In this document: positions 5,717 to 57,969 of the stretch, piece after piece
Layout: every line of letters starts with the position of its first letter
Numbering within the stretch: position 1 is the first letter of the stretch
Assembly (NCBI GenBank): GCA_965242555.1
Contig: CBDESO010000012.1
Span: forward strand, 330,803-394,802
DNA from: Dehalococcoidia bacterium
GTDB lineage: Bacteria > Chloroflexota > Dehalococcoidia > Lucifugimonadales > JADFKI01
Reading direction: 5' to 3'
Length of the DNA: 64,000 nucleotides
Translations under genes and position numbers: made by a program
Notes under the pieces: model-generated
Database searches by the model: none
Seen by the model: the letters and a program-made list of their open reading frames with translations, nothing else
Told to the model about the DNA's origin: nothing

Positions 5717-5860
5717 CGTTTCTTTTCAGGTGGTTTTGAGAGTTTGGCAACTTACGCTCCACCTTATAAAGCAGGTGGTTATGGCAAAGCCATCCAACCG
5801 GCTACAACGATAGAAATGCTCAACCACCTAAATGGAAACGCTACCCCTACCCCCTATCCC

Positions 5861-5889
5861 TTGCAACCCAAACCCGCTACCTGTAACCT
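5861..5889 (+). promoter_or_regulatory. Promoter-like box C (TTGCAA-17-TAACCT) upstream of ugd
   Basis: Third copy of the conserved block, about 55 bp upstream of the ATG at 5942. Confidence 0.4.
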
Positions 5890-5941
5890 AATACTTTATA
5901 CTTGTCAAAACTTCACGCTTGATGCCTCACCCTGCGCGCCA

Positions 5942-7246: not shown

Positions 7247-7354
7247 CGATTCCATACTCCCAAAACTAATCTCATTTGTTATCCGCAGCCACAATCTATA
7301 AAATAATTGAACAAGCGCATATAACGCCAATGTAAAACAAAGGACTTACGCAAC

Positions 7355-8176
7355 ATGATACCAACTAAAGAAAATAAACGACTCATCATCCTGCTCAGAA
7401 AACTCCAAGCCAAAGAAAACAATGACGCCAATGCCGTCGCCAAAACAGAATACCAACTCTATGGAAACAAAAAAGGCACCCTACCTAGTTTTAAGCACGA
7501 AGATAGGGATGACATCCAACTTCTAGTCGATAAAGGTATGATTGAACTTGCCACAAAGCCCCCCATCAATCCGATAGCACAAATACTTAACCCCTTCCCA
7601 GGAATAGACGAATACCATATCCTACCCAAAGGGCGAGCGTATCTTGCCCAACAAACACAAGACAAATTCATTTCCGGTTCACACACAAGCGGTATGCTTG
7701 CATGGAGTATATGGCTTGACGAATCCATCAATCTGGTGTACAGGCCCAAAATCCGCATTCTTCCTAATCTCATACACTCTTGGATCCAAACAAATCTGGT
7801 CACTACGACACTCAGTATTGACCCGCCGTCCCACGATGAACCTCTATACAGGATGCGTATTCCCCCATTTAATACTACATATGTAGTAACCCGTCATCAT
7901 TGGCAATTTGATAAGGGTACCAAGACCTGGTGGAAACGTAGAACGCAAACCACAAAGAAATCCCTTATCGGCGCTGAAGAAGTAGAAACTTTTTCAGAAC
8001 TAGATGATGCCATGCGCTACGTCGCATACTATTATCCACTTCTCGGCATTAAACGCCTTAACCGAATGTGGAAATGGGTGCGCTCATTTCTCCGCATTGT
8101 TTGGAAAATCCTTAATTGGTGGATACTCCCCACCATCATATCTTTGTGGGTTTATGACAGATATTTCAGCGGATAA
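7355..8176 (+). CDS. Hypothetical protein, possibly an N-terminal winged-helix domain plus a C-terminal TM anchor (low-GC islet)
   Basis: ATG follows AAAGGA. The C-terminal hydrophobic segment is ILNWWILPTIISLWVY. No recognisable family. Local GC is far below that of the flanks. Confidence 0.5.
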   Translation: MIPTKENKRLIILLRKLQAKENNDANAVAKTEYQLYGNKKGTLPSFKHEDRDDIQLLVDKGMIELATKPPINPIAQILNPFPGIDEYHILPKGRAYLAQQTQDKFISGSHTSGMLAWSIWLDESINLVYRPKIRILPNLIHSWIQTNLVTTTLSIDPPSHDEPLYRMRIPPFNTTYVVTRHHWQFDKGTKTWWKRRTQTTKKSLIGAEEVETFSELDDAMRYVAYYYPLLGIKRLNRMWKWVRSFLRIVWKILNWWILPTIISLWVYDRYFSG

Positions 8177-8361: not shown

Positions 8362-9336
8362 ATGGCAAAGCGCATAAGCATCATCAACTTCAAGGGCGGC
8401 GTCGGCAAGACCACGCTTGCGTTCCATCTCGGCGCGGGACTTGCTGCGTTTCATGACAAGAGGGTGTTGCTGGTAGATATGGATCACCAAAGCAGCCTGT
8501 CCATAGTTTGCCTGAGGGCGGGCAAATGGAATGAACTTGTTAACGGCAAGCAGACTGTTGACGAGATTTTTAGAACCTTCATCAATCCGTCCCACTCAGT
8601 TGGCAATGAGATTATTGTCAAGTCCCCTGTGAACCAACGATTCTGGGGCAGGGATTACAATAGCGATAAGTATCGCTATCTTAGCTACAATAAACTGGAC
8701 ATTGCGCCTGCGAGTCTCAGTCTTGACGATACAGAGATTGAGCTAACCGCATCGCATCAAGGCAATGCGATAAATTCAGAATGGAACAAGCGCACGCTGA
8801 TATGCCGCTGGATCGAAGAATCAGCAATAGATGATGAGTACGACTACATCATCTTTGACTGCCCGCCTGCGACAAAAATCGTCGCTCAAAATGCCATTGC
8901 GGCCAGCCACGGGTACATCATTCCAGTTGTGCCTGAGGCAGTGATGGAACGGGGCGCGCCGCATCTCCACCACATGATGGAGTCAGGCATTGATACTCGG
9001 TTAAAGGCTCTCGCCGCGATGGGAGAGCCCCGCCCAATACATGTGCCTGACACCAAACTTGTCGGGTTAGCCATAACTCGCATCCAAGTCGCTGCTTGGG
9101 GTTACACAACTGACCATGATGAGCATCTTGGGTCACTACAGCGTCGTTGGGGAACTGAACTACTAAGGCCTTACATAGAGCAGGGCACTGGTGTGTCTTC
9201 AGCTTTGTCGGTAGGCCGTCCGGTTTATAGCCGTGAAGGGATACGTAGCTGGGGGCAAAACATAGAGGCGCGCGGGATCAATACTCAGTTCATAGAGCTA
9301 ACAAACGAAATCAAGCGAAGGGTTGATGCCTTATGA
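8362..9336 (+). CDS. ParA/MinD-family (deviant Walker A) ATPase
   Basis: IINFKGGVGKTTLAFHLG (KGGxxK[ST]), DMDHQSSLS and IIFDCPPA Walker B. RBS GGAGGA. At 324 aa it is longer than canonical Soj, with an internal insertion. Confidence 0.8.
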   Translation: MAKRISIINFKGGVGKTTLAFHLGAGLAAFHDKRVLLVDMDHQSSLSIVCLRAGKWNELVNGKQTVDEIFRTFINPSHSVGNEIIVKSPVNQRFWGRDYNSDKYRYLSYNKLDIAPASLSLDDTEIELTASHQGNAINSEWNKRTLICRWIEESAIDDEYDYIIFDCPPATKIVAQNAIAASHGYIIPVVPEAVMERGAPHLHHMMESGIDTRLKALAAMGEPRPIHVPDTKLVGLAITRIQVAAWGYTTDHDEHLGSLQRRWGTELLRPYIEQGTGVSSALSVGRPVYSREGIRSWGQNIEARGINTQFIELTNEIKRRVDAL

Positions 9337-10511: not shown

Positions 10512-10588
10512 TGGTGGAGCTGAGGGGACTCGAACCCCTGACTTCTTCCTTGCAAAGGAAGCGCTCTCCCGTGCTGAGCTACAGCCCC
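10512..10588 (-). tRNA. tRNA-Ala (anticodon UGC), CCA encoded
   Basis: The reverse complement reads GGGGCTGTAGCTCAGCACGGGAGAGCGCTTCCTTTGCAAGGAAGAAGTCAGGGGTTCGAGTCCCCTCAGCTCCACCA. It folds as a cloverleaf with the G3:U70 identity pair and anticodon loop TTTGCAA. Confidence 0.93.
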
Positions 10589-10848: not shown

Positions 10849-12347
<1,499 letters not shown>

Positions 12348-12358
12348 CGTGTGTATTT

Positions 12359-15888: not shown

Positions 15889-16088
15889 GCCTACGCCCTT
15901 CCTTGCCTTAGTGGTCTTGATTATGCTTTCGTCGTTTTGATATGAAAACGCCTATGCCTTTGCGCTGATTGTATCACACACCCTATCCCAATCGGATTGC
16001 CCGACAGAACGACGGCGACAGAACAGAACGGACGCAGACACCCCCTTGCCCAATCGGCCCCCGCCTATTCATATCGCCCTCGCCAAAG

Positions 16089-16118
16089 TTGAGCGCCCTT
16101 AGCGAACTCAGATATAAT
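16089..16118 (+). promoter_or_regulatory. Promoter TTGAGC-18-TATAAT for RCC1/PQQ paralogue 1
   Basis: CCAAAGTTGAGC...gaTATAAT. The same architecture is conserved upstream of paralogue 2. Confidence 0.55.
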
Positions 16119-16196
16119 TGCGCCCGCCCAACTACTAGACACGGAGTATCCCCAACATTGCTTAATCTCGCCGCCATATCCACGTATGCCGCGCGT

Positions 16197-18497
16197 TTGT
16201 TTGGGGAGAGGCAGAACGAAAGCATCCCAAGCCTCGCCGCCCTCTGCGCCGCCCTTTGCCTAACCCTATTCGCCTGCTCTCAACCGCCCGCGCCCCAACC
16301 CCCCCTTGCCCCCACCGCCACCACTCAACCCACGCCTGCCCCCCCGCTGCCCGAACCCACGCCGCAACCCAGCTCTGCCCCCACGCAACCCGTGCCCTTG
16401 CCTACAAGCGTCGCCACCCCGTCACCCCCGGCGCAACCCACGCCACCCCCAACGCCCACCACCGCCCCAGCTCCTCCAAGCGTCGCCACGCCAACGCCCA
16501 CCGCTCAGCCTACTCCTACTCCCACGCCAACCCCGCCGCCAACCCTTCCACCCGCAGACGTCGCCTTCACGCAAATAACCGCCAGTAAAACCTACGCCTG
16601 CGGACTGCGCGAAAACGCCGCCGCCCTCTGCTGGGGACGCGACAACAACGACGATGGCATCCTAGCCCCTCCCGCACAAACCGCCTTCAGCCAAATATCC
16701 GCCGGGCTGGGCTTCACCTGCGGACTGCGCCAAGACGCCACAATCGCCTGCTGGGGAAGAAATTCGGCGGGGCAAGCCTCCCCGCCGCAAGGCTCATTTA
16801 GCGAAATAGCCACAGGCGGCAACCACGCCTGCGCCATTCCCATGCCACAAAGCTCGCCCCCCGGACTTATATGCTGGGGAGCGCCATTCCCAAACGGCGA
16901 TGAAACCCTGCTGCTGGACGCGCCCATCTCCGATATTAAGGCAGGAGGAAGTTCCACCTGTGGACTGACCCCCCAAGCCGATATGGCTTGCATGCAAATG
17001 AATCAGCGCCTGACTGAAATCACTCCCGGACCATTCACCCGCTTAAGCGTGGGCTTGCATCACATCTGCGCGTTGCGCGAAGACGGCAGCGCCTTCTGCC
17101 AAGAAGACAATCCCCAGTTCCGCTCAAGCCCGCCCCCCACCAAGTTCGTCCAAATCGCCGCAGGCTGGAATCACAGCTGCGGCATAACCCGCGCGCGCCG
17201 GATAGAATGTTGGGGCAGCGGACGCCCGGCGGCCCCAGGCGAGCGCCTCGCCGCCCCCGACGGCGAATTCGTCGCAATCACTATCGCCTGGCGCAACTCC
17301 TGCGCCCTCCGCCCCAACGGACGCGCCGTATGCTGGGGAACGCCCGACTACCTCCCCTCCGACTTTGCCCCCGAAATCCCCAACATCTCCGCCGGCGTCT
17401 CTCCCGCGTTTGGCGGCGCTGAGTTCAACTTGCCCGTGGACATATTCCCCTGGCCAAGCGGCGGACTTGCCGTAGTGGAACACAAAGGCGTCATCACCGC
17501 GCATCGCGACCAACCCGACGCGCCGCCCCCGCAAACCATACTTGACATCAACCACGCAGTCGGCGGCAGCGGCATTCTCAGTGCCGCCCTAGACCCGCGC
17601 TTCGAGGACTTCCCCTACCTATACGTCTGGTACACCGCTAACGTCTGGCACAGCGCCGTAGCGGACAACCTATTGGACCAGGGCCCGCCCCGTCTTGTTG
17701 GGCGACTGTCCCGCTTTCGCGTGGAGCGCGGCATCGCCATCAGAGGCTCGGAACTAGCCCTCCTAAACGTCCACATTTCCAACGAATCGCACATAGGCGG
17801 CGCCATACGGTTCGGCGCGGACGGCATGCTCTACCTCGGCATCGGCGACAACGGAAGTAAAGGCAACCCTCAAAACCTTAACAAGCTTAAAGGCAAAATC
17901 ATCCGCATAGACGTGCGCGGCGCAACCGAAGAGCGCCCCTACCGCATCCCGCCCGACAACCCTTTCGTGGACAACCCCAACGCCCGCCCCGAAATATGGG
18001 CATACGGCATGCGAAACCCCTGGCGCATGGCATTCGACCCCAAAGCCCCCAACAGCCTATTCGTCGCCGACGTAGGCCAAAGCACCCGCGAGGAAGTGTC
18101 CATAGCCACCGCCGGCGCCAACCTCGGCTGGCACCTATGCGAGGCGGACATCTGCCAAGAATCGCTCGACCGCGCCACAGCAGCCAGCCTCGCGCCGCCC
18201 GCCGTCGCCTACGGCAGAGACACCGGCTGCGCCGTCATCGGCGGCGTAACCGTCCCCTGGCTAGACAACGGCTTCATATTCGGCGACATTTGCTCCCGCC
18301 GCGTCTGGCTGCTGGAACGAATCAGCCTGCCCGCCGGCCCGCCGGACAGCCCCCAAAACTGGCGCATGCGCGAAATAGCCAACCTATCGGACTCGGCGCG
18401 CAACATAACCGCCTTTGGCGCGGACGCCAACGGCAACATATACGTGCTGCCGGGCAAAGGCCCAATACTGCGCCTCTATCCCGAACCCGCCGAATAG
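16197..18497 (+). CDS. Lipoprotein: RCC1-like 7-blade propeller fused to a PQQ-dependent sugar (glucose/sorbosone) dehydrogenase propeller, paralogue 1
   Basis: Lipobox LTLFAC, a P/T-rich linker and seven ..CGL/CAL..CWG.. blades. These are followed by GGAIRFGADGMLYLGIGD, RIPPDNPF, EIWAYGMRNPWRMAFD and GANLGW. The start is uncertain: TTG at 16197 is the in-frame candidate, and the ATG seen in paralogue 2 is AGG here. Confidence 0.75.
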   Translation: MFGERQNESIPSLAALCAALCLTLFACSQPPAPQPPLAPTATTQPTPAPPLPEPTPQPSSAPTQPVPLPTSVATPSPPAQPTPPPTPTTAPAPPSVATPTPTAQPTPTPTPTPPPTLPPADVAFTQITASKTYACGLRENAAALCWGRDNNDDGILAPPAQTAFSQISAGLGFTCGLRQDATIACWGRNSAGQASPPQGSFSEIATGGNHACAIPMPQSSPPGLICWGAPFPNGDETLLLDAPISDIKAGGSSTCGLTPQADMACMQMNQRLTEITPGPFTRLSVGLHHICALREDGSAFCQEDNPQFRSSPPPTKFVQIAAGWNHSCGITRARRIECWGSGRPAAPGERLAAPDGEFVAITIAWRNSCALRPNGRAVCWGTPDYLPSDFAPEIPNISAGVSPAFGGAEFNLPVDIFPWPSGGLAVVEHKGVITAHRDQPDAPPPQTILDINHAVGGSGILSAALDPRFEDFPYLYVWYTANVWHSAVADNLLDQGPPRLVGRLSRFRVERGIAIRGSELALLNVHISNESHIGGAIRFGADGMLYLGIGDNGSKGNPQNLNKLKGKIIRIDVRGATEERPYRIPPDNPFVDNPNARPEIWAYGMRNPWRMAFDPKAPNSLFVADVGQSTREEVSIATAGANLGWHLCEADICQESLDRATAASLAPPAVAYGRDTGCAVIGGVTVPWLDNGFIFGDICSRRVWLLERISLPAGPPDSPQNWRMREIANLSDSARNITAFGADANGNIYVLPGKGPILRLYPEPAE

Positions 18498-18570
18498 CCC
18501 CCCAACGCCTAACCCGCCGCGCCCTGAATTCTGCCGCGCCCCCCGCGCCCCCCGCGCCCCCCGCCAAAAG

Positions 18571-18600
18571 TTGAGCGCCCCCAACCAACTCAGATACAAT
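18571..18600 (+). promoter_or_regulatory. Promoter TTGAGC-18-TACAAT for paralogue 2
   Basis: CCAAAAGTTGAGC...gaTACAAT, homologous to 16089..16118. Confidence 0.55.
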
Positions 18601-18696
18601 CGCCCCCGCGCCACTCTTATATTTAGATATGGAGTAATCCCAGCATTGCCTAACCTCGCCGCCATAGCCGCGCCCGCCGCGCTTTTGTTCAGACAA

Positions 18697-20985
18697 ATGC
18701 AGAACGGATACACCCCAAGAACCGCCGCCCTCTGCGCCGCAATCTGCCTCGCCCTACTCGCCTGCTCCCAACCTGTCCCCGCGCCCCAACCCACGCCCTT
18801 GGCGACAAGCGTCGCCACCCCCGCGCCGCCTACCCACGTGCCATACACACCGCCATCCGGCTTACCCTCTGCGCCCACGCCGCCATCCGCCGCTATCCCC
18901 CCTATCGCGGCGCAACCAACGCCATCCCCCGCGCCCACTGCCACGCCCTTGCCCCCAAGCGTCGCCATCCCAACGCCATCCGCCCAGCCTACCCCCACGC
19001 CCACGCCGCCAATCGATCCCCCAGACGTCGCCTTCACGCAAATAACCGCCGGCAAGACCCACGCCTGCGGCTTGCGCGAAAACGGCGCTATCCTCTGCTG
19101 GGGACGCGATAACAATCACTATGGCAACCTAAACGCTCCCGCCGAAACTGCCTTCCGCCAAATATCCGCCGGGCTGCACTTCACCTGCGCCCTGCGCCAA
19201 GACGCAACTATCGCCTGCTGGGGAAATAACTCCAACGGCCAAGCCAACCCGCCGCAAGGCGCTTTCAGCGAAATAGCCGCAGCCGCCGGATACGCCTGCG
19301 CCATCCCCCTGCCGCAAACCGCGCCGCCCGCGCTTATATGCTGGGGAGCGTCATTCCCAAACGGCGCCGAAACACTGCCGATGGACGCCCCCATTTCCAA
19401 TATTCAGTCAGGAAGTTCTATCTGCGGGCTGACCCCAAAAGGCGATATGGCTTGCTTGCGAATGAAACAGCGCTTGATAGAAATCACCCCTGGCCCCTTC
19501 ACTCAGATAGCGGCCGGACTTGCCCACACCTGCGCCCTCCGCGAAGACGGCAGCGCTTTCTGCCAAGGCGACAATTATCGCCTCCGAGCGACTCCGCCGC
19601 CCACAAAGTTCGCCCAAATCGCCGCGGGCCGGTATCACAGCTGCGGCATAACCCTCGCCCACCGGATAGAGTGCTGGGGCAGCGGAGTCCCCGCCGCCCC
19701 CGGCGAGCGCCTTGCCGCCCCCGACGGCGAATTCGTCGCAATCTCCATCGGCTGGCGCAACTCCTGCGCCCTCCGCCCAAACGGACGCGCCGTATGCTGG
19801 TCAACGCCCGACTACGCCACATCCTCCTTCCTGAACATAGAAATTCCCAAGGCATTCGGCGGCGCTAAATTCGACGCCCCCGTGGACATCTTCCCTTGGC
19901 AAAGCGGCGGCTTGGCAATCGTCCACCGCAGCGGCGTCATCGCCGCCTACCACGACCGGCCCAACGCGCCGCCGCCGCATCCCATACTAGACCTAACCGA
20001 CGAAGTAGTCTGCTGCCCATACGAAAGCGGCATGTTCAGCGCCGCCCTAGACCCGCAATTCCAAGACTTTCCCTTCTTGTACATCTGGTACAGAGCCATA
20101 TCGGACAACGTATCAAGCGAGAACGAGCCCGGCTATGTGGGACGCCTATCGCGCTTTCGCGTTAACCGCGGCATCGCCGTTAGAGGCTCCGAGCTAGCCA
20201 TCCTTGAGGTGGATCTGCCCAAACACGGCCGCCTAGGCGGCGACATCCGTTTCGGCGCGGACGGCATGCTCTACCTCGGCATCGGCGACAACGAAAAATC
20301 GGCCGACGCCCAAGCCCTGAACAACCTGCGCGGCAAAATCATCCGCATCGACGTGCGCGGCGCAACCGCAGCCCAACCCTACCGCATCCCGCCCGACAAC
20401 CCCTTTGTGAGCGCCCCCAACGCGCGCCCCGAAATATGGGCGTATGGCATGAGAAACCCCTGGCGCATGGCATTCGATCCCAAATCCCCCGCCCGCCTAT
20501 TCGTCGCCGACGTAGGCGAAGGAACCCGCGAAGAAGTATCCATAGCCACCGCCGGCGCCAACCTCGGCTGGCCCCTCTGCGAGGGCGACCTTTGCCAAGA
20601 ATCCCTAGACGCGGCAACCGCGGCCAACCTCGCCCCGCCCGCCATCGCCTACGGCAGAGACGTCGGCTGCGTCGTCATCGGCGGCGTAACCGTCCCCTGG
20701 CTGGACAACGCCTTCATATTCGGCGACCTATGCTCCCGCCGCGTCTGGCTGCTGGAGCGTGATAGCCAACCCGACAGCGCTCCCGCCGGTACGCAAGAGC
20801 CTACACAAGACAGCGCCCAGGGATGGCGCATGCGCGAAATAGCCAACCTATCCAAGTCAACCCGCAGCATAATCGCCTTTGGCGCAGCCCCCGACGGCAG
20901 CGTCTACGTCCTGCCGAATAATGGCCCCATACTGCGCTTAGATCCAAGCCTAGCAGACCCCCTGCCCGACCCTGTCGCCGAATAA
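18697..20985 (+). CDS. RCC1-like propeller + PQQ-dependent sugar dehydrogenase lipoprotein, paralogue 2
   Basis: ATG at 18697 (MQNGYTPRTAALCAAICLALLAC lipobox). Same domain order and motifs as paralogue 1. The track ORF start at 18415 overlaps paralogue 1 and is rejected. Confidence 0.85.
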   Translation: MQNGYTPRTAALCAAICLALLACSQPVPAPQPTPLATSVATPAPPTHVPYTPPSGLPSAPTPPSAAIPPIAAQPTPSPAPTATPLPPSVAIPTPSAQPTPTPTPPIDPPDVAFTQITAGKTHACGLRENGAILCWGRDNNHYGNLNAPAETAFRQISAGLHFTCALRQDATIACWGNNSNGQANPPQGAFSEIAAAAGYACAIPLPQTAPPALICWGASFPNGAETLPMDAPISNIQSGSSICGLTPKGDMACLRMKQRLIEITPGPFTQIAAGLAHTCALREDGSAFCQGDNYRLRATPPPTKFAQIAAGRYHSCGITLAHRIECWGSGVPAAPGERLAAPDGEFVAISIGWRNSCALRPNGRAVCWSTPDYATSSFLNIEIPKAFGGAKFDAPVDIFPWQSGGLAIVHRSGVIAAYHDRPNAPPPHPILDLTDEVVCCPYESGMFSAALDPQFQDFPFLYIWYRAISDNVSSENEPGYVGRLSRFRVNRGIAVRGSELAILEVDLPKHGRLGGDIRFGADGMLYLGIGDNEKSADAQALNNLRGKIIRIDVRGATAAQPYRIPPDNPFVSAPNARPEIWAYGMRNPWRMAFDPKSPARLFVADVGEGTREEVSIATAGANLGWPLCEGDLCQESLDAATAANLAPPAIAYGRDVGCVVIGGVTVPWLDNAFIFGDLCSRRVWLLERDSQPDSAPAGTQEPTQDSAQGWRMREIANLSKSTRSIIAFGAAPDGSVYVLPNNGPILRLDPSLADPLPDPVAE

Positions 20986-21005: not shown

Positions 21006-21043
21006 CCAAAAGTTTTTTGCTTACTTTTTTACAAAAAAGTAAG
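21006..21043 (+). repeat. AT-rich dyad element, copy 1 (CCAAAAGTTTTTTGCTTACTTTTTTACAAAAAAGTAAG)
   Basis: Member of a four-copy family. An 11-bp inverted repeat, CTTACTTTTTT/AAAAAAGTAAG, carries a compensatory extra T:A pair relative to the other copies. Confidence 0.85.
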
Positions 21044-21132
21044 ACCCCCACGCTTTCCTCTACCTACCTCCTTTTCGTCTGGTATAATCTAATCCAATCC
21101 CATAATCCCAAACAAAGAAAGGCGCATCCCCC

Positions 21133-21978
21133 ATGACAACCCAACAATACCCCAACCCCGACATCCTAGCCCAAACCGACTGGCTCGCCGAGCGCATCAA
21201 CGACCCCAACATCCGCATCGTGGACTGCGACCCCATAGACGCCTACGCCCGCGCCCACATCCCCGGCGCAGTCGGCATCCCCGTCCACCACTACATCAAG
21301 CAAGACGGCTACGACCGCGACCCGCGCGCCAACCCCCTAGTCGCGCCGCCCGCCCAAATGAAAACCCTTATGGAAAGCATGGGCATCGGCGACGACAACC
21401 TAGTCATCGCATACGACAGCAACGGCGCGCTATGGTCAACCCGTTTTTGGTGGGTCCTAAACTACTACGGCCACACCAACGTCAAAGTCCTAAACGGCGG
21501 CTGGAAAAAATGGCACTCCGAAGGCCGCCCCACATCCATAACCGCGCCCGCGCCCGCGCCCGCAACATTCACCCCCGCCGCCCAAGACAACCTAGTCTGC
21601 TCCCTTGACTACGGCGTCGCCAACGTCGGCAACGACGACGTCCTATTCCTAGACGTCCGCTCCGACGGCGAATGGGACGGCAGCAACGCCCGCGGCAACG
21701 CCCGCGCCGGACGCATCCCCGGCGCCGTCCACCTAGAATGGCTAAACTTCATCACCGACGACATCCACCAAACCATCAAGCCCGCAACCGAACTGCGCGC
21801 CATGCTAGACGCCGTAGGCGCCACCCCCGAAAAAGAAATCATCACCTATTGACAGGGCGGCATCCGTGCGGCGCACGGAGTATTCGTCCTCAACCTGCTC
21901 GGCTACGCCCGCGCCCGCAACTACGACGGCTCAATGGGCGAATGGGCAAACCGCCAAGACACCCCCCTAACAACCTAG
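21133..21978 (+). CDS. Two-domain rhodanese (thiosulfate/3-mercaptopyruvate sulfurtransferase) with an in-frame UGA at the active-site Cys position; candidate selenoprotein, otherwise a pseudogene
   Basis: ORF 21133..21852 ends ..EKEIITY-TGA. The same frame continues QGGIRAAHGVFVLNLLGYARARNYDGSMGEWANRQDTPLTT to TAG at 21976. Together this reads as the rhodanese active-site loop xxYCQxGxRAxH..NYDGSxxEW, with TGA where Cys belongs. An extended -10 (TGgTATAAT) lies at 21080..21088. Confidence 0.6.
21863..21879 (+). promoter_or_regulatory. SECIS-like hairpin 11 nt downstream of the in-frame UGA
   Basis: tccgtgc-ggc-gcacgga forms a perfect 7-bp stem with a G-rich apex. The stem codons (cgT gcG gcG) break the otherwise near-uniform C/A third-position usage of this gene. 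Confidence 0.45.
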
Positions 21979-22056: not shown

Positions 22057-24273
22057 ATGAAACAACTCGCCCGCCTCGCGCGCCGCGCAACCCGCCTGCC
22101 CACAACCGCGCCCCTAATCTGCGCCGCCCTATGCCTCGCCCTAACCGCCGCCTGCGCCCAACAACCTCCGCCCGCTCGCCCGCCCGCGCCCTTGCCTACA
22201 TACTCGCCCCCAATCCACTCGCTCGCGACGGTGCCTATGCCCGCTCAGCCCGCCCAGCCCGCCACGCCCCTCCCTGCGCCCCCGTCGCAGCCCGCGCCGC
22301 TCCCCGTGACTGCCACGCCCACGCCATTCCCGCCCTCAACCGATCCCCCCGCCGACGTCGCCTTCACCCAAATAAGCGCCGGCAAAAGCCACGCCTGCGG
22401 CCTGCTTGAAAACGGCGCTATCGCCTGCTGGGGGCACGACTACTTCGGACACGACAACCTAGACGCCCCCGCCGGAACCGGCTTCCGCCAAATAGCCGCC
22501 GGACGGGACTTCGCCTGCGCCCTGCGCCAAGACGCCACAATCGCCTGCTGGGGAGATAATTCGGAGCGCCAAACCTCCCCCCCGCAAGGCGCCTTCGCCG
22601 AAATAGCCGCAGGCACAGCCCACGCCTGCGCCATCCCCGCATCCCAAACCGCGCCGCCCGCGCTCGTATGCTGGGGAAGATCATTCCCAAACGGCGCTAC
22701 AACCCTGCCGCTGGACGCCCCCCTCTCCAAGATTCAGGCAAGCGCCCAACTCACCTGCGGCCTAACCCCCCAAGCCGACCTGGCTTGCGTATCATTAGAG
22801 CGCCGACTGGCTGAAATCACCCCCGGCCCCTTCAGCGGATTCGGCGTAGGCTTGCATCACGTCTGCGCCCTCCGCCAAGACGGCGCCGCCCATTGCCAAG
22901 GCCTAAACGACTCCCTCCAAGCCAACCCGCCGCCCACCAAATTCGCCCAAATCGCCGGCGGCTGGTACCACACCTGCGCCCTGACCCTCGCCCGCCGGAT
23001 AGAATGTTGGGGCAGCGACATCCCCGCAGCTCCCGGCGAGCGCCTAACCGCCCCCGACGGCGAATTCGCCGCAATCTCAATCGGCTGGCGCAACTCATGC
23101 GCCCTACGCCCCGACCGCCGCGCCCTCTGCTGGCGCGCGCCCGACCACATCGACTACCAACTGCCCGTCGGAATCACAGAGGCATTCGGCGGCGCAAAAT
23201 TCCAATCCCCCGTAGAGATATTCCCTTGGCCAAGCGGCGGCTTAGCAATCGCCGACCGCAGCGGCGTCATAACACTCCGCCATGACCGGCCCGACGCGCC
23301 GCCGCCCAAAACCATCCTGGACATCTCCGACTCCGTCCTATGCTGCCCCGGCGAAATCGGCTTGTACACCGCCGCGCTAGACCCGCAATTTGACGAATTC
23401 CCCTTTCTCTACCTATGGTATGGCGCGATAGCCGACCACGCCTCAGGCGAAGAAACGCCCGGCGTCATAGGCCGCCTATCGCGCTACCGCGTCAACAACG
23501 GCGTCGCCCTCAAAGACTCCGCCCTAACCATCCTGGAAGTCATCCAGCCCGGCATAGCCCGGCTGGGCAGCGCCCTCCGTTTCGGCCCCGACGGCATGCT
23601 CTACCTCAGCCTAGGCGTCGGCGACGGCAGCGCCTCCGCCAACGCCCAATCCCTCGCCGAGCTGCGCGGCAAAATCATCCGCATAGACATCCGCGGCGCA
23701 ACCCCCGCCCAACCCTACCGCATCCCCCCAGACAACCCATTCGCGCGCGCACCAGACGCCCGCCCCGAAATATGGGCATACGGCCTCAGAAGCCCTTGGC
23801 GAATGGACTTCGACCCCGCAAACCCCAACCGCATATTCGTCGCCGACGTAGGCGAAAGCGCCCGCGAGGAAGTATCCATAGCCACCCCCGGCGCCAACCT
23901 AGGCTGGCCCCTCTGCGAGGCAGACCTCTGCCAAGAAACCCTAGCCCCCGCCCTAGCCGCCACCTTAACGCCGCCCGTCGTCGCCTACGGCAGAGACCAA
24001 GGCTGCGCCGTCATAGGCGGCATCGCCGTCCCCTGGCTTGACAACCAATTCATCTTCGGCGACTTCTGCTCCCGCCGCCTCTGGCTCCTAGAACAAGACG
24101 CCCCTCCCGACGACGAACCCGACAGCCCACCCACCTGGCGCATGCGCCAAATAGCCGACCTATTCGCCCCCGTGCGTTTCCTATACTCATTCGGCTTGGC
24201 AACCGACGGCAGCGTCTATGTCCTAGCCCGCGAAAGCCCAATACTCCGCCTACACCCCGCCCTAGTCAAATAG
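22057..24273 (+). CDS. RCC1-like propeller + PQQ-dependent sugar dehydrogenase lipoprotein, paralogue 3
   Basis: MKQLARLARRATRLPTTAPLICAALCLALTAAC lipobox and the same motif set (RFGPDGMLYLSLG, RIPPDNPF, EIWAYGLRSPWRMDFD, GANLGWP). It starts 78 nt after the rhodanese stop with no obvious promoter. Confidence 0.85.
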   Translation: MKQLARLARRATRLPTTAPLICAALCLALTAACAQQPPPARPPAPLPTYSPPIHSLATVPMPAQPAQPATPLPAPPSQPAPLPVTATPTPFPPSTDPPADVAFTQISAGKSHACGLLENGAIACWGHDYFGHDNLDAPAGTGFRQIAAGRDFACALRQDATIACWGDNSERQTSPPQGAFAEIAAGTAHACAIPASQTAPPALVCWGRSFPNGATTLPLDAPLSKIQASAQLTCGLTPQADLACVSLERRLAEITPGPFSGFGVGLHHVCALRQDGAAHCQGLNDSLQANPPPTKFAQIAGGWYHTCALTLARRIECWGSDIPAAPGERLTAPDGEFAAISIGWRNSCALRPDRRALCWRAPDHIDYQLPVGITEAFGGAKFQSPVEIFPWPSGGLAIADRSGVITLRHDRPDAPPPKTILDISDSVLCCPGEIGLYTAALDPQFDEFPFLYLWYGAIADHASGEETPGVIGRLSRYRVNNGVALKDSALTILEVIQPGIARLGSALRFGPDGMLYLSLGVGDGSASANAQSLAELRGKIIRIDIRGATPAQPYRIPPDNPFARAPDARPEIWAYGLRSPWRMDFDPANPNRIFVADVGESAREEVSIATPGANLGWPLCEADLCQETLAPALAATLTPPVVAYGRDQGCAVIGGIAVPWLDNQFIFGDFCSRRLWLLEQDAPPDDEPDSPPTWRMRQIADLFAPVRFLYSFGLATDGSVYVLARESPILRLHPALVK

Positions 24274-25669: not shown

Positions 25670-25744
25670 TGGCTCCGCAGGTAGGATTCGAACCTACGGC
25701 CAATCGGTTAACAGCCGATTGCTCTACCACTGAGCTACTGCGGA
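25670..25744 (-). tRNA. tRNA-Asn (anticodon GUU), CCA encoded
   Basis: The reverse complement reads TCCGCAGTAGCTCAGTGGTAGAGCAATCGGCTGTTAACCGATTGGCCGTAGGTTCGAATCCTACCTGCGGAGCCA. It has a canonical cloverleaf, and the anticodon loop is CTGTTAA. Confidence 0.92.
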
Positions 25745-25941: not shown

Positions 25942-27207
25942 CTAGTCCCCCACCGGCGCCCTCCGACCCCGCGCGCCACCTCTCGCATTCCCCGCCACAA
26001 ACCCCACCACCCCCGCCAGCGCCCCGATCCCCGTCATCCCGAACACATTCGCCACCCCAAACGGCGTAGCCAGCGGCCCCACCACAAACGACCCCGCGCT
26101 GCCCCCGATGTCCCACGCCTGCTGCAGCGTAGCCATCCCCGCGCTCCGCTCCCGCGGCGGCACCCGATCCACCGTGAACGCCTGTATCCCCGGCTGCAGC
26201 AGCCCAAACCCTAGCCCCGCGAAAAACCCCGCGCTCAGAAACATCGCCTGAAAAAACGCCCCATTCAGCACAAACATCGCCGTCGCCACCGACAACAGCC
26301 CCGGCACTATCACCGTCGGCCGGCCCAGCCTATCCGCTATCGGCCCCGCCGCCGCCATCGCCCCCATCGACGTCAGCGAAAACACCGTGTAAAACAGCCC
26401 CGGATTCCCCAAATTCCCCTGCGACGCCAACAGCGGCAAAAATGTATTTATCGGCGCCGTCGTGAATGTATATGTCAAAAACACCAGCGTCGGAAATATC
26501 GCCGCCCTAGACACCAGCGGCGGCTTATCCCCAGAACCCGCGCTCGCCGCGGGCCCCGGCTGCGCCGCCTGCTCAAACCCTATCCGCCGCGCCGAAATCC
26601 GCGCCGCGAACAACGTCCCCAGCAGCGCCGCCGCCGCCGAAAACACGAATGCGTACGTAAACCCATACGAATTCTCCCCCACATAAGTCAGTATGTAAGA
26701 CGCCACAAACGGCGAATACAAAAACGACGCGTTTATCGCATTCCCCATATACGCCATCGCCTCCGCCCGCCTATTCGCCGGCGCCAAATTCGCCACTATC
26801 GTTGACGTCGCCACCGGCCCCAGCGCCAAGCCTACACCCTGAAACATCCGCATCGGCACCAACCACCACGGCCCCAGCGCGAATATGTACGCCACGCTCC
26901 CCAGCGCCACTATCGCCGTCCCAGCCACCGCTACCCGCTTTGGCCCAAATGCGTAGATCCACTGCCCCCCAACAGGCCTTATCAGCAGCCCCACAATCCC
27001 AAACGCGCCCACGATAATCCCGATATGCCAAGTCGTCCCATGCAAATGCAGCACATACGGCGGTATCACCGTCAGCATCGCCGTGTAACCCGCGAACATA
27101 AAATGCGCCGTCAGCAGATTCAACACAAAATCCGCCGTCCAAAGCCTATTCCCCTGCCCCGTATCTGCCTGTCCAACCTGTCGCGCCATCAAACCGCCGC
27201 CTGCCAT
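25942..27207 (-). CDS. MFS transporter
   Basis: 421 aa with about 12 predicted hydrophobic helices and the loop motif GPIADRLGRP between TM2 and TM3 of the second half. Confidence 0.8.
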   Translation of the reverse strand: MAGGGLMARQVGQADTGQGNRLWTADFVLNLLTAHFMFAGYTAMLTVIPPYVLHLHGTTWHIGIIVGAFGIVGLLIRPVGGQWIYAFGPKRVAVAGTAIVALGSVAYIFALGPWWLVPMRMFQGVGLALGPVATSTIVANLAPANRRAEAMAYMGNAINASFLYSPFVASYILTYVGENSYGFTYAFVFSAAAALLGTLFAARISARRIGFEQAAQPGPAASAGSGDKPPLVSRAAIFPTLVFLTYTFTTAPINTFLPLLASQGNLGNPGLFYTVFSLTSMGAMAAAGPIADRLGRPTVIVPGLLSVATAMFVLNGAFFQAMFLSAGFFAGLGFGLLQPGIQAFTVDRVPPRERSAGMATLQQAWDIGGSAGSFVVGPLATPFGVANVFGMTGIGALAGVVGFVAGNARGGARGRRAPVGD

Positions 27208-33785: not shown

Positions 33786-36626
33786 TCACCGCCCCACAGC
33801 GAACTCCACCCCCCACACCCTACCCTCCCCGCCAACAAACTGCCCCGTCCGGACGCGCTCCACCCCATACCCCGGCAACCCACGCTCAACCACGCATATA
33901 TCGCCTATGCGCGCCCCGTATTCAGCGAATTCAAAGTCCATATTGACAAACCCGCGCCCGCGCCAGGCCGCCGGCAAGTCGGCGAGATCACTGGGAATTA
34001 TATGCAGAAAGAACCGCGCGTCCACATCGCCCGCCGCGCAGTTTTCCTTGAGATACGCCAAGCTATCCCCGCGCAGATACACATCGAAGTCAGACTTAGC
34101 GACGGGTTGCCCGTAGTCGCCGGCTGTGATACCGGCATACACCGCTTGCGCCGCGACGTGGGCGGCCGGGTCAAATTCAGCGCTCCACACGACGCCCTCC
34201 CCACCAACAAACTGCCCCGTATGGACGCGCTCTATCCCATAACCCGGCAACTCGCGCGCCGCCACGCAATCATCGCCCACATACGCGCCGTATTCGGCAA
34301 ACCCAAAATCCAAGTTCTCAAACCCGCGCTCGCGCCAGACCGCCGGCAGATCGACAGGATCAACGGGAACTATGTGCAAAAAGAACCGCGCGTCCACATC
34401 CCCCGCCTCGCAGTCCTCTTTCAGATACGCCAGCGCGCCGCCGCGCATATACACATCAAAGCCCGACCGCGCCACCGGCTGCCCGTACTCCCCTGCCGCG
34501 ATGCTATCGTACACCGCTTGCGCCGCCGCGCGGGCCGCCAAGTCAATGTCCGCGCTCCACCCATCGCCGCCAAGCTCCGCCGCGCTCTGTCCAGTGCGGA
34601 TGCGACCTATGGCATATTCTAGCAAGGGCTGTCTGTGGATGCACTTGCCCTCAAAAAAGACGTCGGTATGCGCGTCCAACCGGAAGTCCAAATTCTCAAA
34701 GCCATGCTCCCGCCTGTCCGACGGCAAGTTGGCGGGATCTACGGGGACGATGTGCAGGAAGAATCGCATCCTAGATCCGTTTGACGATAGCGGCGCGCAG
34801 TCCTCGCCGAGATAGTAGAGCGCGTCGTCATAAAGGTAGACATCGAATGCCGAGCGCGTCAGAAGAGTTCCATTCGCCTCGATATCTTCGTATGCCGCGC
34901 GGTAGGCGGCCGCCTTATTTGGCGCAATGATGTACGCGATGGCGTTGCCATAGGCGTTGATGGCGTAAATAGGCGGCTGCTCCAGCATGCTCAAGACGTT
35001 TATGCGCGGGTGAAAATAAAACTCGGATCCTCCGATACTTTTCCTGATCTGCTTGTTATGCCTGGCTTCGACAAACAGATAAAAATCCGCCATGTGCGGG
35101 CTGGTCAAACTTATGATGCGTTCCCGATCCTCCAAGGGAAGGATTGGCTCGCTTCGCCATACTCGCAACACGCGCAGAGTGTCATCCGGGTAGCGCGCCA
35201 GCAGATATTCCAGCAGTTGCCGGTGCGTCATCACCCAGTAGTCCATATCGTACCGCTCGCCAAGCGCGCCGGGCGTCTTGGTATCCACAAGCCCATTGAA
35301 ATACACCTGCTGGTTCGGATGCAGCGCCGCCATAGCCGTCAGCGTGGTTATCAGCCCAACGCCCGCCGCGCCGTATGCCAACCCCCGCCGCGCCATATGC
35401 AAGCGCCCGCAACCGCGAATCCGGCCGGGCAGCCGATCTCCAACTTTCCAAATACCCCCCCCCATACGAATGTTCGTAATTGTATGCAAGCCAACCGCCG
35501 CAAGCAAGCAAAACGGCGCCCACAAGAAATACATATGCCGCCAGCCGTTGTGAATGTTGGATTGCAGCGCGATGAGCGCCACGACAGGCAGCGCAAAGCA
35601 GCCTAGCAGCATTATCCGAAAGCGGGTTTCGCGGTCGCGGAGGGCGTGTAGAGGGCGCGTGATTGTCTGCCAACTGACTGCAGCCGCGCCTAACGCGCCC
35701 AGCGCCAGCGCCATCGGCGGCGCGGTTATCGCAAACCACGCCGGTATGTAATTCCACGGCGCGGCGTCAGATCTGTATAGCTCGCCCATAAACAAATTAT
35801 CTACAATGTAGGGATGCTGGGACAGTACGCGGATGCCCTCAACGAACCGCAGCGGGTTTTCCCAATAGTACGGGTGAATGATGTACAGCGTCGCCGCCGC
35901 CGCCGCCGTGAATATCCCCGCCGACGCTAATATACGCTTGCGCTTCCCCCCGGCCGCCTGCCAAAGATCTATCCCGCGCATACCGAGTATCATCGGCAAC
36001 AGCATCAGTCCGAAAGGGCGCAGATCTATCGCCAAGCCAACCCCTACGCCGCATATCAAAAACGCGCCGAGCGTATCCCTGCGAAACGCGCGGTGAGCAA
36101 GATACAGCGCGATGACCATCAGCGCCGCGAAAGGAATGTCCTTGCTGTTAAAAAACGAATGCGCGTACAAGCGCGGATGCAGCAGAAACATCAACATAGC
36201 CAACAACGCCACCCACCTGTTGCCCAGCATCCGATAGGCGAGCATCCCGCAAGCAAAGCCGCCCGCTATAAAGAACAGGTGGGTAAGCAGGTGGCGCGTC
36301 AGGTAGATATGGCGGCTGTCTTGCAGTCCGAGCGCGCGCTCAGCCAACAGCAGCGGCATCTCAATCACTAGGCCGTAGTAGCTGATATCGAAGCGGGCCG
36401 GCTTTGAGTCGGCGCCCACGTCGTACTCATACAATCCCAGGATGTAGTCGGCGTTGGCGCGGGCGATCCCCCGCTGCTTAGCCTCGTCCACGCCTAGCCC
36501 GTAATCGTCCACCACGCCCACGCCCAAAACCGCAAACACCGCGCACGCCACAGCCGCCCACGCCCAAAACGGCGCGCGCCGCAACGCGGCTAGGCGGAAT
36601 AGCGTGAATTGGGATAGCATAGGCAT
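33786..36626 (-). CDS. GT39/ArnT-PMT-like membrane glycosyltransferase with three C-terminal ~125-aa repeat modules
   Basis: About 12 TM helices, a DE-containing first loop (VDDYGLGVDEAKQ) and a PMT_2-like core. The C-terminus carries 3x FDVY(L/M)..LAYLKE.C..DVDARFFLHI.P.D..DLP..WR.RGFEN.DF.. modules. The start is probably ATG at 36626 or 36620 rather than TTG at 36680. Confidence 0.65.
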   Translation of the reverse strand: MPMLSQFTLFRLAALRRAPFWAWAAVACAVFAVLGVGVVDDYGLGVDEAKQRGIARANADYILGLYEYDVGADSKPARFDISYYGLVIEMPLLLAERALGLQDSRHIYLTRHLLTHLFFIAGGFACGMLAYRMLGNRWVALLAMLMFLLHPRLYAHSFFNSKDIPFAALMVIALYLAHRAFRRDTLGAFLICGVGVGLAIDLRPFGLMLLPMILGMRGIDLWQAAGGKRKRILASAGIFTAAAAATLYIIHPYYWENPLRFVEGIRVLSQHPYIVDNLFMGELYRSDAAPWNYIPAWFAITAPPMALALGALGAAAVSWQTITRPLHALRDRETRFRIMLLGCFALPVVALIALQSNIHNGWRHMYFLWAPFCLLAAVGLHTITNIRMGGGIWKVGDRLPGRIRGCGRLHMARRGLAYGAAGVGLITTLTAMAALHPNQQVYFNGLVDTKTPGALGERYDMDYWVMTHRQLLEYLLARYPDDTLRVLRVWRSEPILPLEDRERIISLTSPHMADFYLFVEARHNKQIRKSIGGSEFYFHPRINVLSMLEQPPIYAINAYGNAIAYIIAPNKAAAYRAAYEDIEANGTLLTRSAFDVYLYDDALYYLGEDCAPLSSNGSRMRFFLHIVPVDPANLPSDRREHGFENLDFRLDAHTDVFFEGKCIHRQPLLEYAIGRIRTGQSAAELGGDGWSADIDLAARAAAQAVYDSIAAGEYGQPVARSGFDVYMRGGALAYLKEDCEAGDVDARFFLHIVPVDPVDLPAVWRERGFENLDFGFAEYGAYVGDDCVAARELPGYGIERVHTGQFVGGEGVVWSAEFDPAAHVAAQAVYAGITAGDYGQPVAKSDFDVYLRGDSLAYLKENCAAGDVDARFFLHIIPSDLADLPAAWRGRGFVNMDFEFAEYGARIGDICVVERGLPGYGVERVRTGQFVGGEGRVWGVEFAVGR

Positions 36627-36778
36627 CACGTGGGGAATTATACCAATCTCAGCGCAACGGCGGGCAACGTTCCAATTCAAGCGGCTTAATACGCCTAATC
36701 TCTACAGCCGTTTGGACAGCATTCCCACCCCCACCCTAACCCGCCGGCAACAACCCGCCAACAGCGACAAGCGGCAAC

Positions 36779-46791: not shown

Positions 46792-46841
46792 ATGCCTAAT
46801 CCCCCTGCCTAATCCTTGCCGCCGGGCCGCCGCATCCCGCC

Positions 46842-47555: not shown

Positions 47556-47670
47556 TTGGATTGCACCTCCGGCATACGGGGCAGTTGGCGATAGGCGATT
47601 AAGCCTGCGCGTATTCTGTGAAAGCGTTGCGGCTACGGGTTGCGTATGGCTATCTGATACGGCTAAACGA

Positions 47671-57921: not shown

Positions 57922-57969
57922 GCGGCGCAACAAAGATTCACTCCATAATGTACATAAGGGTTAACATCA

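Follow-up and report, generated by a model that had tools for sequence, protein, structure and literature searches.

The window analysed here (the whole stretch of DNA, 64 kb in length) carries on its plus strand a reading frame that begins with an ATG at 21133 and contains a single in-frame stop, a TGA preceded by the residues ...PEKEIITY. After this TGA, the frame remains open for a further 41 codons (QGGIRAAHGVFVLNLLGYARARNYDGSMGEWANRQDTPLTT) up to a TAG. All of these elements had been read in the preliminary description of the locus, which also took the joined product to be a two-domain rhodanese of 281 residues. Indeed, the joined protein matches the Pfam family Rhodanese (PF00581) in two stretches (E 6e-37), and its closest solved structures, 1UAR and 1E0C, align across residues 6-279. 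The N-terminal domain is devoid of a catalytic-loop Cys or selenocysteine (Sec); the catalytic residue lies in the C-terminal domain, as the first member of a six-residue loop with Arg at its end, which is the arrangement that characterises tandem-domain rhodaneses. Against the NCBIfam model NF008557 (3-mercaptopyruvate sulfurtransferase SseA equivalog), the protein scores 111.5 bits, compared with a cut-off of 250; it is a relative of SseA, though no SseA equivalog. NCBIfam holds no dedicated model for the Sec-rhodanese family, and the best matches fall under their own cut-offs. Public annotations close the gene at the TGA and give products of 238-241 aa (a few of 247 aa), in which the active site is missing and which are labelled either 'hypothetical protein' or 'thiosulfate/3-mercaptopyruvate sulfurtransferase'.

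Table 1. Features of the rhodanese locus, in window coordinates
Feature	Position	Strand	Details and basis
Possible extended -10 promoter element TGGTATAAT	21080..21088	+	Suggested by sequence reading; identical in L003
Shine-Dalgarno-like AAGAAAGG, 10 nt ahead of the ATG	21115..21122	+	Suggested by sequence reading; conserved in L003
Complete gene of a predicted selenoprotein, tandem-domain rhodanese	21133..21978	+	281 codons (239 + Sec + 41) plus TAG; translation, Pfam, structures
N-terminal rhodanese domain, aa 15-129	21175..21519	+	Best Pfam stretch (residues 15-129)
UGA codon 240, predicted to be read as Sec; catalytic-Cys position, start of the U-Q-G-G-I-R-A loop	21850..21852	+	Orthologue and structure alignment
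Spacer, CAG GGC GGC A	21853..21862	+	10 nt, between UGA and hairpin
SECIS-type hairpin UCCGUGC-GGC-GCACGGA	21863..21879	+	17 nt; RNAalifold, codon conservation
Codons 241-281, post-Sec remainder of the catalytic C-terminal rhodanese domain	21853..21975	+	Conservation, structure alignment
True stop TAG	21976..21978	+	Sequence, translation

The gene is adjoined by three paralogous proteins that combine RCC1 repeats with a glucose/sorbosone dehydrogenase (GSDH) domain, which agrees with its earlier placement within an RCC1/PQQ paralogue array. The suggestion that it is co-transcribed with one of these paralogues found no support, given that the gene has a conserved upstream element and a Shine-Dalgarno-like element of its own and that its genomic context is not conserved beyond the closest relative. 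In L003, the closest genome, the upstream element recurs unchanged between flanks that differ. Because a two-hexamer consensus scan called no promoter at this site, the element is regarded only as a possible promoter.

The comparative evidence that the TGA is a functional codon is overwhelming, beginning with its distribution. It occupies the codon 240 column in 83 of 83 sequences, i.e., in the window copy and in 82 fetched relatives, which are independently assembled, share 55-96% identity, and belong to several phyla (Dehalococcoidia/SAR202, Ca. Binatia, Ca. Entotheonella, and others); the nearest relative, OZ251547.1, is 93-95% identical in nucleotides over the locus. Among the best 120 homologue clusters, the top approx. 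116 (62-90% identity) are products of 238-241 aa (a few of 247 aa) that cover 84-85% of the query and therefore all stop at the same place. The full-length homologues (P0072, P0102, and P0117) are more distant and read TYCQGGIRAAH, with Cys at the UGA column; in 1UAR and in A. vinelandii RhdA (1E0C), it is likewise the active-site Cys that falls in this column. The earlier view that UGA replaces the persulfide-forming Cys of the loop is thus borne out by both comparisons, with UGA in the orthologues and Cys in the distant homologues. The immediate context is equally uniform: TAT precedes the UGA in 80 of the 81 unique genes, and C follows it in all 81. Moreover, at least 120 metagenome contigs contain an exact copy of the 32-nt sequence that comprises UGA and hairpin, and all of them continue with QGGIRAAH. 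Approx. 9 of the 34 other long ORFs of the window terminate in TGA; hence, UGA is not reassigned there.

Judged by purifying selection on the protein, the sequence downstream of the UGA is translated. Residues 250-279 have a mean pairwise amino-acid identity of 0.84, compared with 0.67 upstream of the UGA, whereas the fraction of identical codons is virtually the same (0.454 for codons 250-279 vs. 0.451 upstream). The post-TGA codons are thus conserved more strongly as protein while their synonymous divergence is normal, which argues for translation. The segment also aligns to solved rhodaneses through residue 279, the CX4R loop included. It had been proposed that the downstream part evolved as coding sequence, and the 41 codons do behave in this way. 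The codon bias cited in this respect is real (third positions of the gene are C 0.68, A 0.18, G 0.11, and T 0.02), but the preference for C- and A-ending codons reflects an extreme window-wide strand skew that is mirrored in minus-strand genes and is not specific to this gene. The observation that the exceptions gather at the hairpin was accurate, as four of the five non-obligatory G- or T-ending codons past the UGA (CAG, CGT, GCG, and GCG) fall within the spacer or the hairpin.

The hairpin itself, which had been described as a perfect one at the position expected of a bacterial SECIS, was recovered as such: it has seven perfect pairs and a GGC loop, and, with a 10-nt spacer, its first base is the 11th nucleotide past the UGA. 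In the RNAalifold consensus it is the only structure. The conserved core is a 6-bp stem (CCGUGC/GCACGG) with the GGC loop, and the loop and four stem pairs are invariant among 75 unique sequences. As regards covariation, conservation at the RNA level is evident and one compensatory change, from C-G to A-U at pair 14/28, was found in two sequences of Ca. Entotheonella; because the stem is otherwise nearly invariant, the covariation support is thin. A few sequences (L024/L027, L062, and L076) carry pair-breaking changes. A lower stem (GGGCGGC/GUCCUC) predicted from the window sequence alone was rejected for want of conservation: the third bases of the Gly codons differ among the sequences, and the stem is missing from the RNAalifold consensus. 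The folding energy of the hairpin does not differ significantly from that of shuffled sequence (z about -0.8).

Codon usage across the hairpin is more telling. Its codons (ATC CGT GCG GCG CAC GGA) are 95.5% codon-identical, compared with 45% elsewhere in the gene, and the 6-codon window from codon 244 ranks first of 242 windows. Codon entropy is 0-0.3 bits at Y239 (TAT in 80/81), Q241, I244, R245, A246, A247, and H248, and 0.47 bits at G249 (GGA). R245 is encoded by CGT in 79 of 81 genes, although CGC prevails at every other Arg column, and A246, A247 (both GCG), and H248 (CAC) show no variation in 81 genes. In contrast, the third positions of the spacer codons G242 and G243 vary freely (1.68 and 1.21 bits). 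Synonymous sites frozen only in the hairpin, together with free Gly codons in the spacer, point to selection on the hairpin at the RNA level and read as the signature of a bacterial SECIS. The features by which such an element is recognised, namely a stem-loop approx. 11 nt past the UGA, an apical G, and selection on the RNA, are all found here.

Components of the Sec machinery were sought with ARAGORN and Rfam for tRNA-Sec and by tblastn with E. coli SelA, SelB, and SelD. None of these searches detected tRNA-Sec, selA, selB, or selD, whether in the window itself (64 kb), in the fetched flanks of the 82 genomes (1.5 Mb), or in the metagenome loci (0.77 Mb). Weak matches occur in L112 and L103, and a SelB-like match in L061 proved to be EF-Tu, adjoining nusG, rplK, and rplA. 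A second UGA gene was found near 12 related Dehalococcoidia loci; it encodes an AhpC-TSA/redoxin protein with the W-U-G-[TS]-C motif, a classic of selenoproteins, and has a 17-nt hairpin after a 10-nt spacer, i.e., at the same spacing as in the Sec-rhodanese. A Sec/Cys homology screen of every TGA-interrupted ORF in 1.57 Mb was dominated by 'shadow' ORFs, lying antisense to conserved genes or in another frame of them; after subsequent filtering by amino-acid composition, one convincing additional selenoprotein was left, the W-U-G-T-C redoxin. Other TGA-split ORFs of the window with a coding-like third-position bias (e.g., 36783-37064 and 25946-26392) likewise only shadow genes on the minus strand. 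It should be noted that few bacteria are as rich in selenoproteins as related Dehalococcoidia MAGs, for which 46-49 such genes are reported (PMC13326102), and that bins of sponge symbionts show an enrichment of the COGs for SelA and SelB (PMC5649159).

Taken together, it is very probable that the gene at 21133-21978 encodes a tandem-domain rhodanese in which UGA 240 is recoded as Sec by means of a SECIS hairpin. The initial proposal of a candidate selenocysteine sulfurtransferase is thus supported by the uniform UGA column, the conservation of the hairpin, and the coding-like behaviour of the downstream codons. According to this interpretation, codon 240 would be recoded co-translationally in an enzyme of the thiosulfate-sulfurtransferase type: the 17-nt hairpin, acting as a bacterial SECIS, would recruit SelB-GTP-Sec-tRNA(Sec) to a ribosome paused at UGA-C, and after Sec insertion the ribosome would read the remaining 41 codons as far as the TAG. 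The dependence on SelB and tRNA-Sec is presumed rather than observed, since no Sec machinery turned up in the window or in the fetched flanks. Sec would occupy the first position of the six-residue loop U-Q-G-G-I-R, the site of the persulfide in Cys-rhodaneses. The adduct chemistry and the physiological substrate are inferred: at this position, Sec would be expected to bind sulfane sulfur, or conceivably selenium, in the form of a Se-S(H) adduct, from which it would be handed to an acceptor.

The alternatives raised at the outset were a recent nonsense mutation (TGC or TGT to TGA) and a sequencing error, to which a pseudogene and an assembly error at the same codon may be added. A gene that is intact apart from one in-frame stop is what a fresh mutation would look like, and the public gene calls do stop at the TGA. 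However, neither a mutation nor an error would be expected to recur at one codon in all 83 independently assembled genomes of several phyla, at identities of 55-96%, and again in at least 120 metagenome contigs, nor would a pseudogene keep 41 downstream codons under stronger purifying selection than the remainder of the gene. Furthermore, the plus strand is short of G and T and rich in C and A, so that a change from TGC to TGA, i.e., C to A, would lead away from the favoured C. The probability of this explanation is therefore negligible, and both alternatives of the preliminary description are excluded by the TGA column and the downstream selection. It is almost as hard to accept, if marginally less so, that translation truly ends at the UGA, with a 239-aa protein devoid of the catalytic loop as the product and the hairpin and downstream sequence retained as a terminator, an attenuator, or a separate 41-aa peptide. 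Gene callers do give the 239-aa product, and a GC-rich hairpin past a stop codon can serve as a transcriptional or translational signal. Nonetheless, the shortened product would be entirely without an active site, whereas the downstream part completes the rhodanese fold, aligning through residue 279 with the CX4R loop, and is conserved as protein in the frame of the UGA while synonymous change is free. A separate peptide would have neither a start codon nor a ribosome-binding site, and the hairpin is not followed by a T-run, with a terminator scan negative at this position.

A somewhat less remote, though still improbable, explanation is that the UGA is read through without Sec machinery, either by a near-cognate tRNA (Trp or Cys) aided by the hairpin or as a result of reassignment in the lineage, so that residue 240 is not Sec. 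In E. coli, stop codons in the UGA-C context found here are leaky. The lack of observed Sec machinery in the 64-kb window and the fetched flanks and the difference between the GGC loop and the canonical fdhF loop are also in keeping with such read-through. Reassignment, however, is at odds with the TGA codons that terminate other ORFs of the window. The recoded site is exactly the catalytic Cys, a hallmark of Sec/Cys pairs, and Trp or Gly at this position would kill a rhodanese. In addition, related genomes contain a second gene, with a UxxC motif, that has the same spacer and hairpin geometry, the related Dehalococcoidia MAGs are documented Sec users (PMC13326102), and the family is catalogued as a selenoprotein (PMC13188914). 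Recoding of UGA 240 as Sec thus remains the preferred reading. A broader scenario may also be considered, although it is speculative and rather unlikely as a whole: the clade might represent a distinct selenoenzyme lineage, more than one further Sec/Cys variant, whose gene and near-invariant SECIS spread horizontally between Dehalococcoidia, Binatia, and Entotheonella of marine and sponge-associated habitats. The gene for an arylsulfotransferase-like protein lies directly downstream in some clades, and in many Dehalococcoidia the two would perhaps be operon partners in an undescribed organosulfur (or selenium-trafficking) pathway. Cys forms with a 'fossil' SECIS (L085 and L086) would be recent Sec-to-Cys reversions.

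Once the Sec codon is recognised, hundreds of genomes of marine and symbiotic bacteria regain a predicted enzyme with its catalytic site intact. It places a predicted selenoenzyme in the sulfur-transfer metabolism of marine Dehalococcoidia, Binatia, and Entotheonella, and adds to the evidence of a heavy investment in selenium by aerobic marine Dehalococcoidia of the SAR202 type and by the Binatia and Entotheonella that occur alongside them. The strongly conserved 17-nt hairpin may also provide a clean natural example for SECIS recognition by a putative non-proteobacterial SelB. As far as reviews show, no Sec-rhodanese has been biochemically characterised, and rhodanese selenoprotein families were still listed as 'predicted' in 2022 (PMC9312934).

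The idea that Sec can take the place of the rhodanese Cys dates back in print to 2005, and Sec-containing rhodanese-related sulfurtransferases (COG2897; UxxG) have been catalogued since then (PMC1088965, PMC1976440, PMC2398784, PMC13188914). The gene in the window is therefore an unannotated member of an already known selenoprotein family, and the earlier mention of such proteins as predictions from marine metagenomes was correct (PMC1088965, PMC2398784, PMC13188914). The catalogued family is defined by a PF00581 domain and a UxxG Sec motif (PMC13188914), both of which are present here, with the loop U-Q-G-G; the clade was matched to the family, whose catalogued representative is MCY3690685.1, by this definition of domain and motif. 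Common to both are the PF00581 fold, Sec in place of the catalytic Cys, the UxxG motif, two domains of the SseA/COG2897 type, and an origin in marine or symbiont metagenomes. Earlier surveys reported 1-8 Sec sequences, whereas here the Sec form dominates a large clade, seen in 83 genomes at species level and in no fewer than 120 metagenome contigs, with a SECIS almost invariant across phyla. The redoxin found beside the Sec-rhodanese in 12 Dehalococcoidia loci belongs with the Prx-like/thioredoxin-fold UxxC selenoproteins (pfam00578; PMC9312934) and shares the layout of UGA, spacer, and hairpin, but it differs in fold and chemistry, has AGUUR as its hairpin loop, and is absent from the 64-kb window. 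The E. coli fdhF SECIS, with its 17-nt minimal upper stem-loop and 11-nt spacer, is likewise a hairpin inside the coding sequence directly past the UGA, with G residues in the apical loop. In contrast to fdhF, the stem described here is perfect (6-7 bp, with a GGC triloop) and has neither a bulged U nor a G-U loop dinucleotide.

The two-domain architecture is common to Cys-type tandem-domain rhodaneses, such as those of T. thermophilus (1UAR), A. vinelandii (RhdA, 1E0C), M. tuberculosis (SseA/CysA), and bovine rhodanese (1RHD), to whose structures the Sec-rhodanese aligns over its full length with E values from 7e-45 to 1e-30. In these proteins, the catalytic residue likewise opens a six-residue loop with a terminal Arg. 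The loop of bovine rhodanese is RKGVT. The window gene reads QGGIR, compared with RIAER in 1UAR and QTHHR in RhdA, and its catalytic residue is encoded by UGA, as predicted Sec, instead of Cys.

The reading frame encodes a two-domain rhodanese interrupted by UGA at codon 240, and each part of it that had been described, i.e., the ORF, the UGA, the 41-codon extension, and the hairpin, is present in the sequence (see the table). Joined across the UGA, the 281-residue product gives a two-part match to Pfam Rhodanese (PF00581; E 6e-37). The UGA aligns with the active-site cysteine of T. thermophilus rhodanese (1UAR) and A. vinelandii RhdA (1E0C), and alignment to solved rhodaneses extends through residue 279, with the post-UGA segment completing the catalytic domain. 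UGA is not reassigned in the window, where approx. 9 of the 34 other long ORFs terminate in TGA.

Coordinates of features in the window and in fetched loci carrying relatives' DNA (L-numbers)
Feature	Position	Strand	Remark
Rhodanese ORF start (ATG)	21133	+	read from sequence; frame runs to ...PEKEIITY before UGA
In-frame TGA	21850-21852	+	read from sequence
Perfect hairpin tccgtgc-ggc-gcacgga	21863-21879	+	10-nt gap from TGA
Terminal TAG	21976-21978	+	same frame open 41 codons past TGA
Tandem RCC1 + glucose/sorbosone dehydrogenase (PQQ-type) paralogues	15969-18497, 18415-20985, 22057-24273		three
tRNA-Ala(TGC)	10512-10588	-	adjoins 16S rRNA gene
16S rRNA gene	10852-12351	-	complete; in window
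tRNA-Asn(GTT)	25670-25744	-	in window
Arylsulfotransferase-like beta-propeller gene, examples	L026 10874-11995; L072 10867-12021
Redoxin-gene TGA	L008 2334, L009 2251, L010 3226, L011 2354, L012 2217, L014 4739, L015 1151, L016 3403, L017 1342, L018 1133, L020 1140, L021 1178

The joined sequence was searched against 5.8 billion proteins. Approx. 116 of the best 120 clusters considered (62-90% identity) are 238-241 aa long (a few, with a longer N-terminus, 247 aa), cover 84-85% of the query, and share a common end point; a few full-length matches (55-58% identity) read TYCQGGIRAAH at the UGA site. In the DNA of two truncated matches, TGA is followed by the conserved frame QGGIRAAHGVF...NYDGSM.EWANR..TPL. 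A genome scan with one genome per species (GTDB) yielded 80 loci: approx. 60 from Dehalococcoidia/Chloroflexota/SAR202, 14 from Ca. Binatia, two from Ca. Entotheonella, three labelled Deltaproteobacteria or Thermodesulfobacteriota, and one labelled Gemmatimonadetes. Together with two earlier loci and the window, the catalytic-Cys codon is TGA in 83/83; thus, close homologues carry UGA, a point that the preliminary description had left to be checked, whereas distant full-length forms carry Cys. Moreover, exact copies of the 32-nt stretch of UGA and hairpin number at least 120 among metagenome contigs, and QGGIRAAH follows in all of those listed. The explanations that the UGA is a nonsense mutation, the mark of a pseudogene, or a sequencing error are ruled out by these 83 loci and the metagenome contigs. 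All public gene calls inspected for the Sec-rhodanese family are truncated products of 238-240 aa that end at the Sec codon, under names such as 'hypothetical protein' or 'thiosulfate/3-mercaptopyruvate sulfurtransferase'; the Sec-rhodanese family is systematically misannotated in public protein databases.

Conservation was computed on 81 unique genes. Mean pairwise amino-acid identity is 0.84 for residues 250-279 vs. 0.67 for residues 1-238, and identical amino acids are encoded by identical codons equally often on both sides (fractions 0.454 and 0.451, respectively), which means that purifying selection strongly constrains the protein in the UGA frame, with ordinary synonymous drift. The proposal that the downstream part evolves as coding sequence is thus borne out, and these comparisons show a conserved UGA in the catalytic-Cys column and translation of the segment after it.

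Folding energy alone does not set the hairpin apart from shuffled sequence (z about -0.8); therefore, the case for a SECIS (the RNA hairpin directing Sec insertion at UGA) was decided by comparison with relatives. Codon entropy at conserved amino-acid columns is usually 0.6-1.0 bits (two-fold) or 1.2-2.2 bits (four-/six-fold), but it collapses at Y239 (TAT, 80/81 unique genes), Q241 (CAG, 77/81), I244 (ATC, 78/81), R245 (CGT, 79/81, with CGC dominant at every other Arg column), A246 and A247 (GCG, 81/81 each), H248 (CAC, 81/81), and G249 (GGA, 71/77). The two Gly codons of the spacer remain free (1.68 and 1.21 bits). Of 242 six-codon windows, the one from codon 244 has the highest codon conservation (identical-codon fraction 0.955), and the structure that RNAalifold predicts from 18 diverse sequences consists solely of a GGC loop on the 6-bp stem CCGUGC/GCACGG. 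Both partners of the outer C-G pair have changed in the two Entotheonella genomes, which yields A-U but replaces a Gly by Val; one stem pair is broken in a few sequences, and the base 3' of the UGA is C in all. A lower stem obtained by folding the window sequence alone was rejected, as it is unconserved among relatives. The hairpin noted at the SECIS position, after a 10-nt spacer, therefore stands, and frozen hairpin codons beside free Gly codons show that this hairpin, at SECIS distance, is under RNA-level selection.

In bacterial Sec insertion, SelB-GTP-Sec-tRNA(Sec) binds the SECIS apical stem-loop. By this general scheme, the ribosome would pause at UGA-C, and the hairpin would tether SelB such that Sec would be inserted at position 240. 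Rhodanese catalysis proceeds via a persulfide on the loop Cys; here, sulfane sulfur would be bound by the U-Q-G-G-I-R loop as an Se-S adduct and then donated to an acceptor. This CX4R-type loop resembles those of thiosulfate sulfurtransferases rather than 3-MSTs, whose loop is CG[ST]GVT, and the NCBIfam 3-MST equivalog scores well below the model cut-off.

None of selA, selB, selC, and selD was found in the 64-kb window, 1.5 Mb of flanks of 82 orthologues, or 0.77 Mb of metagenome loci; a single SelB-like match in the flanks was rejected as EF-Tu. By a Sec/Cys screen of the flanks, 12 related Dehalococcoidia loci were shown to carry a second UGA gene, absent from the window, with an AhpC-TSA/redoxin fold and the motif FHATW-U-G-[TS]-C (classic W-U-G-[TS]-C). 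Its UGA is followed by the same 10-nt spacer as in the rhodanese and then by a 17-nt hairpin whose loop is AGUUR and whose stem exhibits G-U/A-U variation. In these 12 genomes, it lies approx. 6-10 kb upstream of the Sec-rhodanese. Dehalococcoidia MAGs with 46-49 selenoprotein genes are reported in BSepDB, one of them sharing a UUID-named MAG series with many loci analysed here (PMC13326102), and most bins of sponge symbionts contain SelA and SelB COGs according to Slaby et al. (PMC5649159). The second UGA gene and these reports indirectly support decoding of UGA as Sec in the lineage.

The window is syntenic with the Dehalococcoidia MAG OZ251547.1 (L003; 93-95% nucleotide identity), and the rhodanese is flanked by paralogous RCC1-repeat and glucose/sorbosone dehydrogenase (GSDH) proteins; the three paralogues share approx. 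72-76% nucleotide identity. This context is confined to the closest relative, the neighbours in other genomes being MFS transporters, amidohydrolases, and other unrelated genes. Because the TGGTATAAT and AAGAAAGG elements upstream of the rhodanese are kept between the window and L003, it may well have its own promoter, and its suggested co-transcription with an RCC1 paralogue is unsupported. An AT-rich intergenic inverted repeat, cttactttttt-ac-aaaaaagtaag (21020-21043), lies upstream in a genome of otherwise 61% GC and is partly conserved in L003. In approx. 28 more distant loci (among L024-L081, several Dehalococcoidia subclades), an arylsulfotransferase-like gene (PF05935/PF14269) lies on the same strand 19-164 nt 3' of the Sec-rhodanese, and the two probably form an operon. 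The window holds no such homologue; L003 has a longer one (5699-7375), 2.6 kb upstream of the rhodanese, within approx. 2.1 kb of sequence that is extra compared with the window and separates the first two RCC1-GSDH paralogues.

The first ~46 kb (1-46000) exhibit extreme strand asymmetry (GC skew -0.25 to -0.35, A>T). The bias follows the DNA strand rather than transcription, because + strand skew at third codon positions (-0.5 to -0.86) is the same for genes of both strands. Amino-acid usage is shifted accordingly (P, T, H, Q, and N enriched in + strand genes; G, V, and R enriched in - strand genes). Skew is near normal in genes 8362-9336, 33786-36680, and 38782-40443 and past ~46 kb (46000-64000), which suggests recent acquisition or rearrangement. 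L003, the closest genome, for which Dehalococcoidia affiliation is noted, shares the skew (-0.28), whereas other Dehalococcoidia loci do not. The 16S rRNA and tRNA genes would be useful for placing the organism.

The nearest Cys homologues (L085 2001-2840, L086 2001-2831, L087 111-941) use TGC or TGT. Two retain most of the SECIS sequence (ATCCGCGCGGCGCACGGG in L085, ATCCGTGCGGCGCACGCA in L086), and L087 has lost it; such remnants may represent a 'fossil SECIS' that dates from a conversion of Sec to Cys. Together with the arylsulfotransferase linkage and, chiefly, the strand skew, these forms may be more unusual than the Sec-rhodanese itself.

The geometry is similar to that of E. coli fdhF (K-12 genome), in which UGA is followed by an 11-nt spacer and the 17-nt GGUUGCAGGUCUGCACC hairpin, compared with 10 nt and 17 nt here. 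Sec-containing rhodaneses are an established group of predicted selenoproteins: 'Rhodanese-related sulfurtransferase, COG2897' in the Sargasso Sea (PMC1088965), 'Sulfurtransferase COG2897' in Olavius symbionts (PMC1976440), and cd01449 and COG2897 entries in GOS (PMC2398784), so that the preliminary description was right in placing rhodanese-type selenoproteins among those predicted from marine metagenomes; a 2022 review counts these families among the predicted rather than the experimentally verified ones (PMC9312934). The window protein has the domain and motif (U-Q-G-G) that define the catalogued group and belongs to it by that definition. The original finding is real and its Sec-sulfurtransferase reading right. 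Its value lies in annotation correction, a very clean natural SECIS, and an uncharacterised selenoenzyme in marine Dehalococcoidia sulfur metabolism: the gene is unannotated and systematically mis-called, and it represents a known selenoprotein type rather than a new one.
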